Below are positions 14,211-17,325 of a stretch of DNA of 31,099 nucleotides, in pieces. The DNA comes from Psammoneis japonica (Eukaryota): positions 186,001 through 217,099 of the forward strand of contig QPGO01000133.1 of NCBI GenBank assembly GCA_008632985.1, read 5' to 3'. The position numbers and the translations under genes are program-made. How positions within the stretch are numbered: the stretch's first letter is position 1; every line of letters starts with the position of its first letter. The notes under the pieces are model-generated. The model did not search any database, was not told where the DNA came from, and saw only the letters and a list, made by a program, of their open reading frames with translations.

Positions 14211-14606
14211 GACGCGTTCCAGACACAGGTGGGAATCCGTGTGACATTGGGCCCGCAGAATTCTGCGTGCGAGCTCCGCAGTGAAATTGTGCGGCAATCA
14301 GAATGTCAATGTTCGCCAACAGAAAATGAGGCAATTTTGCGAACGCACAAACTCGCACATGATTGAAGTGCATCGATTTTTACCCAGCCAGTTACATTCT
14401 TCAGACATTGAAGAATGCAACTGGCGCATTGTTGTTTCTATAAATGCGCCATGTAAAACGTCTGGGGCTTCGCAAAACAGCAAGTCTGGACAATTTTTTT
14501 TAAATGTCACACGTAGAAATGTGCGCGCGAAACATGCGACGGATGACAAAAATTGTTTGTGTCACACGTCAGTGCTGCGAGCTCCCACCCAGGGCTGGAA
14601 CACGTC
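14211..14606 (+). mobile_element. MITE (non-autonomous TIR transposon), TpA-eroded copy
   Basis: 396 bp with ~24-bp imperfect TIRs (GACGCGTTCCAG...GGTGGGA). 4-bp TSD TGGG at 14207-14210 and 14607-14610. Colinear with 16931-17325. Confidence 0.93.
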
Positions 14607-16930
14607 TGGGATGACTTTCTGGAATTGACAATCTACCGTGGCTTTGGGTTGGGGCATTGACATGGCAAGTTTGTGCTTCTGTGCATCTTGTGTTTGATGT
14701 TTTTTGTTCTTGCCATGTGCTTGCTGCGTGCCACCGCGACAGCGGGGAGGATGCAGAAGTTGTCGTTGCTGCAGGTGGATTGAGGTTCTGCGGAATTGTT
14801 GGGGTTCTCATTGCAGTTGAAAATTTTCTTTCACGGACAGGCCTTTTGAAAGATTGCCTTCGGGCGCGGTTTGGGTGCGATTCTGGAGTGCTTTTGGAAC
14901 GTTCCGAGAACGGCGAGAAAACGGGAATGATGAAATGCATGTTTCATCGATCAATGTTTCAATTTTGGAGCTGTTGATGAGTGTCACATGCAGACGTCAT
15001 TTAGTGTCAATCTGGCCTGGCAGTTGCAACACAACCTGATGGCATGACTCACAGCCACCGCAGCTCAAAATCATTGAGGCTTCTAACAGCCGTTCTTTTT
15101 CTTAGAAAAAATGGAAACCTGTTTTGATGGGTGTGCCTTTTGGCAACATGTCCATCACACCCATTTAAGTTTTACACTGCTGTGTCACACTTGGACAGTT
15201 TTGACAATGGCTCAGTCACAATGGTGCATTGTCTGTCCCATTGGCTGATTGCGTGGCTCCAAAGTTGGCTCTCAGCGCGAATTGGTGCATTTGAGAATGT
15301 TCTCGGAACGCTTTTGGAATGCTTTTGGAGTGGTTTTGGTGCGATCTGCAAGGGAATCTTGAAATTCACTGCATCCAAATGGTCCCCCCCAAGAGGCCTT
15401 TTTTGGTTTTGGCAGCTGGAGTTGTTTGGCGGGATTTGAATTTGAGACAGAGTGTCCCTCAAAAAGTTGAGGGTGAGAGGGTTGTGAATGATTCAAATTG
15501 GAGTTCTCATCATCAGCATGAAGCAAACTTGGTGCAGGTCCACCCGTTGCCATGAGAAAAATTGTGTGAAAGGCGTGAACCTTGAGGATGGATTTCTTTG
15601 AAGCAGATGTAAAAAACGTCCAGTGCTGTTCAAAATGAGATTTGTTGCACTTTCTCTGTCTGAAATGCAGAAAATTCAAACTTCTGCAAAATCAACAGAG
15701 GCTGAAGCTTTGGAAAGACTGCATTGTTTGTAAACAAGGGAGAAAACAAGGCAAAAAATGAAAATTTTGTTTTTTCCTGCAGCCCCCCCCGCGGATTCCA
15801 ATGTCGCTGGTCTGCACCACATTGCACTTGAACTTTGGTGCATGCAGCAGTGCACTTTTTTTGGGTCACAGTCATTTTCCAGTCATTCTCCACACTGTTG
15901 CATTGCACTCGAGTGGGAAGAAGCAGCCAGGATCATGTGCATCTTTGTGATCTGTGCTGCACAGCATCAGCGTGTCAAGTGCCTCACTCAGCATCAACAT
16001 CACCAGCCAGTGCAACAACCTTGCAACAACTGAAAGTCATTCGGTGTCATTGCGTGGCACACAGTCTTTGTGCCCATTTTTGCCAAATCACAGAGCAGTG
16101 TTGTTGTTGCTTTCTTTGGCTGCTCTTTTGTTTGGTCATTGCCACCAAATTTGTGGCGCACATTTTCTTTTTGTGTGCTTCCAGGCAACTTGAACAACTG
16201 ATCCCACTTCACTGCAAACACTGGCCATTGTTTATTTTCTGTGGACATGCCACCACGGTGCCTTCCATTTGGACTTGGTTGAACAGCAAGGTGGTGGAGC
16301 ACAATTTTTGGTGCTGGGGTTCCACAAATGGGCTCACAGCACCACCCAGCAGCTCACTTTTTGAGCAGGAAAAGCAACTCCTGGACTGTTCAGTTGGTGG
16401 CAGGAGGACGACTGCAGCCTCACTTGCATCACCGGCAGAACAGCGTGAAATTTTCGGGAGCTCTTCTCTGAAAGCACCAGGTGATTCACCAGAAATGTTC
16501 CAACATGTCCATCTCTTTTTTCCGTGCATGTCCACAGGAGATGTGGGTCATTTGAGGGAACACTCTGGCAATGGGGGAGACAATGCTGGAGGTGACACTG
16601 TGGCAGAGGCAGATCGCATGGGAAATTTAAGCAAGAACGGTGCACTTTGAAAGGCCACTGCAGCACAACCAAACATCACTCAAACACAAACAAAGTGTGA
16701 AAACGCATGTTTTTGAGCATGGAAAACTCGCTCACATGGTCATTTTGGGCTCAAGAGGCACTTTTACAGACATCATCGTAAAAGCAAAAAATTTGATGCT
16801 GTGTGTGGTGTTGAAATCAATTTTGACACCATTGGCGGTGTTGATTTCTGATTGGCATTAAAGCCTGCTTTGGCTGGTTGGATTGGGTGTCAAATGACCA
16901 GCTTTGTCAATTGTTGGGAACAGCACAAAA

Positions 16931-17325
16931 GACGCGTTCCAGACGTAGGTGGGAATCCGTGTGACATTGGGCCCGTAGACTTCTACGTGCGAGCTCCGTA
17001 GTAAAATTATACGGTAATTTAAATGTCAATGATCTCCAACAGAAAATGAGGCAATTTTGCGAACGCACAAACTCGCACATGATTGAAGTACATCATTTTT
17101 TACTTAGCCAGTTACATTCTTCAGACATTGAAGAATGTAACTGGCGCATTGTTGTTTCTATAAATTTGTTATATAAAACGTCTGGGGCTTCGCAAAACAG
17201 CGAGTCTGGACAATTTTTTTAAATGTCACACGTAGAAATCTACGTACGAAACATACGACGGATGATAAAAATTATTGTTGTCACACGTCAGTACTACGAG
17301 CTCCCACCTAGGGCTGGAACGCGTC
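16931..17325 (+). mobile_element. MITE, near-intact TpA-rich copy
   Basis: 395 bp. TIRs match at 22/24 positions (gacgcgttccagacgtaggtggga and tcccacctagggctggaacgcgtc). 4-bp TSD AAAA at 16927-16930 and 17326-17329. Contains 29 TpA while its flanks are TpA-free. Confidence 0.95.

Follow-up and report, generated by a model that had tools for sequence, protein, structure and literature searches.

Two copies of one miniature transposon suggest post-insertional TpA conversion in repeat-rich domains of a Psammoneis japonica contig

How can two copies of the same transposon, present in one stretch of DNA, come to differ so strongly in a single dinucleotide, with 29 TpA steps in one and only 7 in the other? 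The stretch in question is a 31,099-nt segment of contig QPGO01000133.1 from Psammoneis japonica (positions 186,001 to 217,099 of the forward strand), hereafter referred to as the window, and the transposon is a miniature inverted-repeat transposable element (MITE), whose two full copies are termed copy 1 (14211-14606, TpA-poor) and copy 2 (16931-17325, TpA-rich). All coordinates are those of the whole window. The answer that we prefer, with a probability of about 0.75, is that TpA is converted to TpG or CpA in situ, after insertion and in targeted domains, and that copy 2 is the later insertion of the two. An earlier inspection of the letters alone (the sequence-only reading) had pointed in the same direction, and its claims are taken up below along with the results that bear on them.

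The two copies and the direction of change

The element is ~395 bp long and has a 12-bp perfect terminal inverted repeat (TIR), a central 39-nt hairpin and 4-bp target duplications, the last being found around both of the full copies (2/2). No Pfam family match was found for the open reading frames (ORFs) that overlap it. The family data used here are contigs of one public run (X1), i.e. of a single sample. At a likeness of at least 80%, 3125 contig pieces were placed on the window, and the summed word depth was 22,000-122,000 over the MITE as compared to ~70-90 in the unique flanks; summed word depth is not a copy number and is read here only as 'very high-copy'. By its anatomy the element is a MITE, that is, a short, non-coding, high-copy TIR transposon. 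Exact-pattern scans for it in viral and prokaryote contig collections gave no copy. Also, 6 metagenome-contig loci obtained from an exact-pattern scan were rejected as chance matches of 20-21 bases, BLAST showing no further similarity in 6/6.

Global alignment of copy 1 with copy 2 gave 396 columns, of which 355 are identical, 40 are mismatches and 1 is a gap. Every one of the 7 TpA in copy 1 is common to both copies and none is private to copy 1. The remaining 22 TpA of copy 2 are lost in copy 1, where they are replaced by TG (11 cases), CA (9 cases), CG (1 case, at 17245) and AG (1 case, at 17020). The alignment thereby reproduces the hand counts of the sequence-only reading (29 vs 7 TpA, all 7 shared, 22 lost and none gained), and where that reading had noted about 3 CpG to CpA changes in the same direction, it gives 3. 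On the fate of the 22 lost sites, the earlier assignment of 20 to TG or CA and of one to CG stands, while the site called ambiguous (17020) reflects a change private to copy 2. Most of the family has A there (depth 26001/26272), as does copy 1, which places the ancestral TpA at 17019-17020 and makes CA its product in copy 1.

Chance as the cause of this asymmetry is excluded by the binomial p-value for a 22:0 direction of TpA change (4.8e-7) together with the concentration of mismatches on TpA bases, which make up 58 of the 395 bases but carry 24 of the 40 mismatches (p = 5.6e-11). Going from copy 2 to copy 1, transitions from A/T to G/C account for 28 of the 40 mismatches (23 of these 28 at TpA), as against only 3 transitions from G/C to A/T, all at CpG, and the GC content rises from 41.5% to 48.0%. 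Per-site losses in copy 1 are 22/29 for TpA, 3/25 for CpG and 13/287 (~4.5%) for other bases, which makes TpA conversion the faster process. The inverted duplication 23037-25170 / 25658-27748, located in a domain of normal composition, served as a control pair: its TpA counts are 77 vs 86 and its substitution spectrum is symmetric over all types.

Two copies alone give no direction, and the dinucleotide pairs that separate them (CA/TG vs TA) are exactly those of repeat-induced point mutation (RIP). On a RIP-like history, copy 1 would be the older state and copy 2 would have gained its TpA by C>T at CpA/TpG. The family contigs argue otherwise. From the 424 places where window and family contigs differ, 40 were listed, and the family shares given here are taken from these. 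Six of the listed rows lie in copy 1 (14283, 14301, 14312, 14384, 14446 and 14449), and in 6/6 the family majority is the letter of copy 2, with shares of 0.84, 0.86, 0.98, 1.00, 0.82 and 0.92, respectively; at 14283 (G>A) the majority has a depth of 23076/27354 and is found in 63 contigs. Only one listed row in copy 2, the one at 17020, departs from the family majority. The sequence-only reading had held that a family consensus carrying TG/CA would speak against it; the majority letters in the six rows are those of copy 2 instead, although just one of these rows is a TpA site. The family majority is thus TpA-rich, in very deep and widely shared words, and the existence of many near-identical TpA-rich copies suggests a recent burst from a TpA-rich source and not a randomly mutated derivative. 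Other repeats of the domain agree with this, the window having TG/CA where the majority of the relatives has TA or CG (e.g. 14838, 14877, 15381; 14100, 14150, 14939, 14946, 15128, 15331).

The ends of the element give a second line of evidence. Copy 2 carries TAGGTGGGA at both ends, whereas in copy 1 the left end reads CAGGTGGGA and the right end, taken as reverse complement, reads TGGGTGGGA, so that the description of a symmetric intact copy and an eroded copy with two different derivatives is confirmed on the sequence. The polarity drawn from the TIRs also holds, since symmetry at the ends and in the hairpin belongs to copy 2 and copy 1 breaks both; over the 60-base ends, terminal repeat symmetry amounts to 40 matches in copy 2 vs 37 in copy 1. 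Moreover, the fungal RIP signature consists of C>T at CpA with TpA-rich and AT-rich products, and the opposite is seen here, the derived copy being TpA-poor and more GC-rich and the surrounding repeat-rich domains being TpA-free and not AT-enriched. The best named protein matches of the window are to diatoms and not to fungi. The RIP-like direction is already largely refuted by these observations and we regard it as very improbable. Because of the family majority letters, the symmetry of copy 2 at ends and hairpin, the TpA-poor domains and the rise in GC on conversion, the comparison of sequences favours the direction TpA to TpG/CpA, with the state of copy 2 as the ancestral one.

Sequence context and candidate chemistry

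For the context counts, copy 2 was taken as ancestor and the adenines of both strands were considered, in this single pair of copies. Sorted by the 5′ neighbour, A>G changes were found at 23/58 TpA, 3/75 ApA, 2/51 CpA and 0/45 GpA; sorted by the 3′ neighbour, they were found at 14/20 TAC, 4/11 TAT, 4/16 TAA and 1/11 TAG. The tetranucleotide TACG was converted in 10/11 cases vs 13/47 in other contexts (Fisher p = 1.8e-4). At the converted GTAG/CTAC sites the product was GCAG/CTGC in 6/6 cases, so that the choice between TG and CA depends largely on the neighbouring bases.

This context rule bears on a different history, in which copy 1 would descend from a source copy that had been converted elsewhere; the TA>TG/CA direction would then be right and the pair would represent two subfamilies. 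In keeping with it, a partial element at 9821-9952 agrees with copy 1 in its CA/TG states at 4/4 comparable sites (GTAG/CTAC) and has a GAATTC variant in common with copy 1. Copy-1 states are also met in other contigs (at 14283 their share is 0.16, and the consensus of a loose end at 14557 has copy-1 letters at two TpA sites), and the two copies are separated by 9 transversions. The shared CA/TG states are, however, expected anyway if the outcome follows context, and identical states in eroded copies then need not mean a subfamily, which weakens the refutation test that the sequence-only reading had based on such identity. The shares of the copy-1 letters in the six listed rows also vary (0, 0.02, 0.08, 0.14, 0.16 and 0.18), unlike what one coherent subfamily would give. 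Besides, the flanks of copy 1 (1 and 1 TpA per 300 bp) are practically TpA-free and still CpG-rich, matching the state of copy 1 itself, and this fits conversion in place. An origin of the pair as two subfamilies is unlikely in view of these points.

The 7 TpA retained in copy 1 (14381-14514) are clustered in the central third of the element, spanning 11 of the 29 sites (permutation p = 0.003), and all 18 TpA sites of both arms are converted. Either tract-wise editing or a context effect may underlie this clustering. At the level of the converted domains, TTAA (survival index 0.45), CTAA/TTAG (0.31) and GTAA/TTAC (0.12) make up most of the TpA that survive, and there are 0 survivors of ATAT and of ATAC/GTAT as compared to 63 and 100 in the normal domains; contexts other than TTAA and CTAA/TTAG are all eventually converted.

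As for the chemistry, a candidate is deamination of adenine to hypoxanthine on transiently single-stranded DNA by an enzyme of the TadA/ADAT2 type. It is suggested because the adenine that is hit needs a 5′ T and because the preferred T-A-C-G corresponds to the tRNA recognition sequence of TadA; we would put the odds of this candidate at roughly even. The requirement for a 5′ T is clear. The preference for TACG is confounded with position (the TACG motifs sit in the fully converted arms), and TpA is self-complementary, so that a hit on the T in the context CGTA fits equally well, T>C in CGTA and A>G in TACG being one event read on opposite strands. A T-directed chemistry of the same direction, in which the T of TpA would be hydroxylated to 5-hydroxymethyluracil or otherwise modified and would then mispair or be repaired with errors, would use this equivalence, and alternatively the TACG preference could reflect the proximity of methylated CpG, the domains being CpG-depleted, which implies methylation nearby. 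Yet the CpG-free contexts ATAT and ATAC/GTAT are fully converted too, which counts against these readings. As rivals for the chemistry only, these options appear rather unlikely.

Domains of the window and conversion in place

Composition divides the window into domains (Table 1). In the normal domains rho(TpA) is ~0.6 and rho(CpG) is ~1, and long intron-free ORFs are present, while in the converted domains rho(TpA) is 0.00-0.13 per kb outside copy 2 and CpG is mostly low. The domains are sharply delimited, with borders no more than a few hundred bp from ORFs. Over the 13.4 kb of converted DNA the dinucleotide fractions are 0.003 for TA, 0.019 for CG and 0.219 for CA+TG, as compared to 0.043, 0.053 and 0.150 over the 15.6 kb of normal DNA. 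The loss of TA+CG (0.074) thus nearly equals the gain of TG+CA (0.070) with base composition nearly unchanged, as predicted if TpA and CpG both turn into TG/CA. The converted targets include the MITE and other repeats (3-50x the depth of unique sequence); a Pfam scan of stop-to-stop ORFs of at least 90 aa in the converted domains gave 0/78 matches, and viral genes were not found. As a cause, selection acting in intergenic DNA against TA/CG is unlikely, since a selfish insertion has been converted as well.

The flanks of copy 2 contain 3 and 1 TpA per 300 bp, whereas a frequency of 0.043, as in the normal domains, would give ~13. Together with the family majority, these TpA-poor flanks support the earlier proposal that the TpA-rich copy is a recent insertion into an already converted domain. 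An age series can be read in the domain 13000-21500, where most of the DNA is without TpA and CpG, the part 13200-15000 (including copy 1) has kept CpG, and copy 2 has kept both.

The sequence of events that we propose is as follows. One high-copy non-coding TIR transposon would insert in repeat-rich, gene-free domains. A localised mutation process in such domains would turn TpA into TpG or CpA, i.e. A>G on either strand, and in the same domains CpG would be lost to TpG/CpA by a separate and slower process, for which 5-methylcytosine deamination is the simplest explanation, both processes together collapsing all pyrimidine-purine steps to TG/CA. Copy 1 would have inserted earlier and since lost TpA, CpG and other bases in the proportions counted above, whereas copy 2, which is still essentially the family sequence, would have inserted after the last round of conversion. 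Conversion may come in episodes, or it may be slow compared with the activity of the MITE; the unconverted state of copy 2 amid converted DNA fits episodic activity without proving it. Targeting seems to be by place (domain or chromatin state) and not by repeat copy as such, because most of the family words are TpA-rich. That conversion follows insertion and is progressive or episodic, as the sequence-only reading had it, is supported by the evidence on direction and by an episodic precedent in the alga Bigelowiella natans, discussed below.

Several observations weigh against this account. Of the rows listed, 14283 alone falls on a TpA, and for most of the 22 sites the family letter lies outside the listing. 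The contigs with copy-1 states (at 14283 and 14557, see above) mean that part of the erosion of copy 1 could stem from a converted source copy. The 9 transversions show that the copies are no clean before/after pair, and copy 2 itself is not identical with the family majority, differing at 17020. All runs are of one sample and are represented by contigs, which lose rare variants. Lastly, the counts, the direction at sites with a readable family majority, the domain structure and the mass balance are shown by the data, while both the chemistry and the link to CpG methylation are what we infer.

We also considered whether the TG/CA states could be an artefact, i.e. systematic errors of base calling or assembly at modified TpA/CpG sites. 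Modified bases can produce motif-specific miscalls in some long-read assemblies, which supports such an origin in principle. However, an 847-base X1 contig with a word depth of 65 matches 15738-16583 with 0 other letters (the run may be the window's own assembly data), and the 29 TpA of copy 2 are called normally within the same domain. An artefact is scarcely credible on this evidence.

Table 1. Coordinates of the domains, MITE copies and related features in the window
Feature	Position	Strand	Remarks
Converted domain	1-3200		composition
Graded transition	3200-4700		includes 177-180-bp tandem repeats
Normal-composition domain	4700-8790		intron-free ORFs: GMC oxidoreductase 4751-6625 (+), MYND-finger protein 7542-8411 (-)
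Converted domain	8800-10850		almost no TpA or CpG
Weak partial match to MITE positions 45-171	8964-9090	+	67% identity; at domain border
Partial related element	9821-9952	+	left end in common with copy 1 (87% identity over 78 bp), divergent beyond it
Normal-composition domain	10900-12990		ORF 11233-12435 (-), no Pfam family match
Converted domain with both MITE copies	13000-21500		most bins outside copy 2: 0-2 TpA per 200 bp
Left target-site duplication of copy 1, TGGG	14207-14210		right one 14607-14610
MITE copy 1, eroded	14211-14606	+	396 bp, 7 TpA, 26 CpG, GC 48.0%
Left target-site duplication of copy 2, AAAA	16927-16930		right one 17326-17329
MITE copy 2, near family majority	16931-17325	+	395 bp, 29 TpA, 25 CpG, GC 41.5%
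Perfect 12-bp TIR GACGCGTTCCAG	16931-16942	+	partner 17314-17325; imperfect similarity onward through TAGGTGGGA
Central hairpin	17107-17145		copy 2 self-complementary 34/39; copy 1 (14387-14425) 32/39, one TA->CA
Normal-composition domain	21600-31099		ORFs 21541-22791 (+), CDP-alcohol phosphatidyltransferase 29830-30525 (+), ricin-B lectin pair
Ricin-B lectin ORF pair	23037-25184 (-) and 25970-27748 (+)		normal-composition domain

Some further features of the window may be recorded. The block 13200-15000 has 0-2 TpA per 200 bp outside the MITE with a normal CpG count of 7-17 per 200 bp, which is an intermediate state, and an inverted repeat at 13655-13778 (41-nt arms, 93% complementary, with a 42-nt spacer) lies in this TpA-free, CpG-rich block. 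Further repeats are present at 14721-15766, with contigs that are 80-90% alike at a summed depth of 3 to 50x unique and a majority that restores CG or TA. In a single contig, 14209 is followed by 14643 after 25 other letters, a hint at a diverged paralog of this flank that lacks copy 1; of the 33 joints, none of the 15 that were listed skips copy 2 (single sample). The bin 8601-8800, with 22 CpG per 200 bp, is the CpG-richest on its side and is situated at the border where TpA falls from 6-12 to 0, upstream of the MYND-finger ORF. In the converted domain at 2001-3500 the GC skew is +0.32 to +0.35 and the AT skew reaches +0.43, and long ORFs are found on both strands with no Pfam match. The tandem repeats of the graded transition (3871-4553, period 177-180 bp, units 75-78% identical) are beside the GMC oxidoreductase gene. 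The ricin-type beta-trefoil lectin ORFs form a head-to-head inverted duplication with ~69% identity between its 2.1-kb arms. For the GMC oxidoreductase and the phosphatidyltransferase the best match among 5.8 billion proteins was 51% each, and the two named eukaryote matches that were traced, at 39% and 48% identity, both come from diatom transcriptomes. No tRNA genes were found in the window.

Relation to known systems and meaning

In a search of the literature on TpA hypermutation, the only report of a TpA>TpG/CpA process was a preprint on B. natans (Mettrop et al., 10.64898/2026.01.13.699255). According to its text, 230/231 single-nucleotide mutations in two integrated viral regions of mutation-accumulation lines consisted of A>G or T>C changes; every GC-biased mutation hit TpA, and these mutations occurred in only some lines and had a rate of ~6e-7 per site per generation. 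The text further describes 124 clusters genome-wide that show depletion of TpA along with enrichment of CpA+TpG, with transposon-type Pfam domains enriched in them, and proposes a deaminase of the ADAT2 type. The direction that we derive from sequence thus has, on the preprint's account, a direct experimental precedent. Common to both cases are changes that are almost only A>G/T>C, restricted to TpA, confined to kb-scale regions and, in the present case presumably, not constitutive. Nevertheless, the de novo mutations in B. natans were observed directly, whereas here the process is reconstructed from two copies and from composition. Also, the depletion reported for B. natans is partial (rho TpA of 0.45 in the region of the nucleocytoplasmic large DNA virus, NCLDV) and is near total here (rho 0.02-0.13 per kb). 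The preprint's text makes no mention of CpG, while here CpG is lost alongside TpA, and its main text has no flanking-base preference or MITE, both of which are present here. The genes of the window are intron-free, in contrast to those of B. natans, which are intron-rich.

With RIP of ascomycete fungi the present case shares a mutational genome defence on transposons and a dinucleotide signature of CA/TG and TA. RIP, however, makes TpA from CpA and leaves AT-rich DNA, which is opposite to the rise in GC seen here, and it is triggered by duplication, whereas most copies of the MITE family appear unconverted and targeting looks domain-wise. The CpG component resembles 5-methylcytosine deamination, as CpG goes to TpG/CpA in the same domains (CG falling from 0.053 to 0.019, and 3 CpG>CpA in copy 1); such deamination cannot explain the TpA loss and is per site ~6x slower than TpA conversion (3/25 vs 22/29). 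With respect to TadA, the native enzyme recognises U33-A34-C35-G36 and evolved TadA prefers UA, as described in two reports (PMC10586758, PMC12296453). TadA/ADAT2 and the TadA-derived base editors so described resemble the present case in having a 5′ U/T beside the edited A, and U-A-C-G resembles the TACG converted here in 10/11 cases. Natural TadA acts on a tRNA loop and not on genomic DNA, while the sites here are genomic TpA and the enzyme is only a candidate.

The one report so far of natural adenine editing in genomic DNA to ward off mobile DNA is a preprint of 2026, and it concerns a single alga. The case described here is apparently independent of B. natans and far more extreme, and it offers a natural experiment in which the same element is found unconverted and 76% converted at a distance of 2.7 kb. 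Beyond the preprint's text, it adds a flanking-base rule (TACG favoured, TTAA resistant, context setting TG or CA), a co-occurring CpG loss, and evidence for targeting by domain rather than by repeat copy. The context rule is a concrete pointer to a TadA/ADAT-like enzyme. As a tentative proposal, which we hold to be possible and well short of even odds, a DNA adenine-editing defence of the TadA/ADAT type may exist in another eukaryotic lineage far from the first (a stramenopile, probably diatom-like, as against a rhizarian), where it would be aimed at CpG-methylated, transposon-rich chromatin and run to completion, removing every TpA and CpG together with 5-methylcytosine deamination and leaving TG/CA as the only pyrimidine-purine steps. 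If this is true, dated MITE insertions could serve as internal clocks for the rate, the context rule and the episodic timing of the process.

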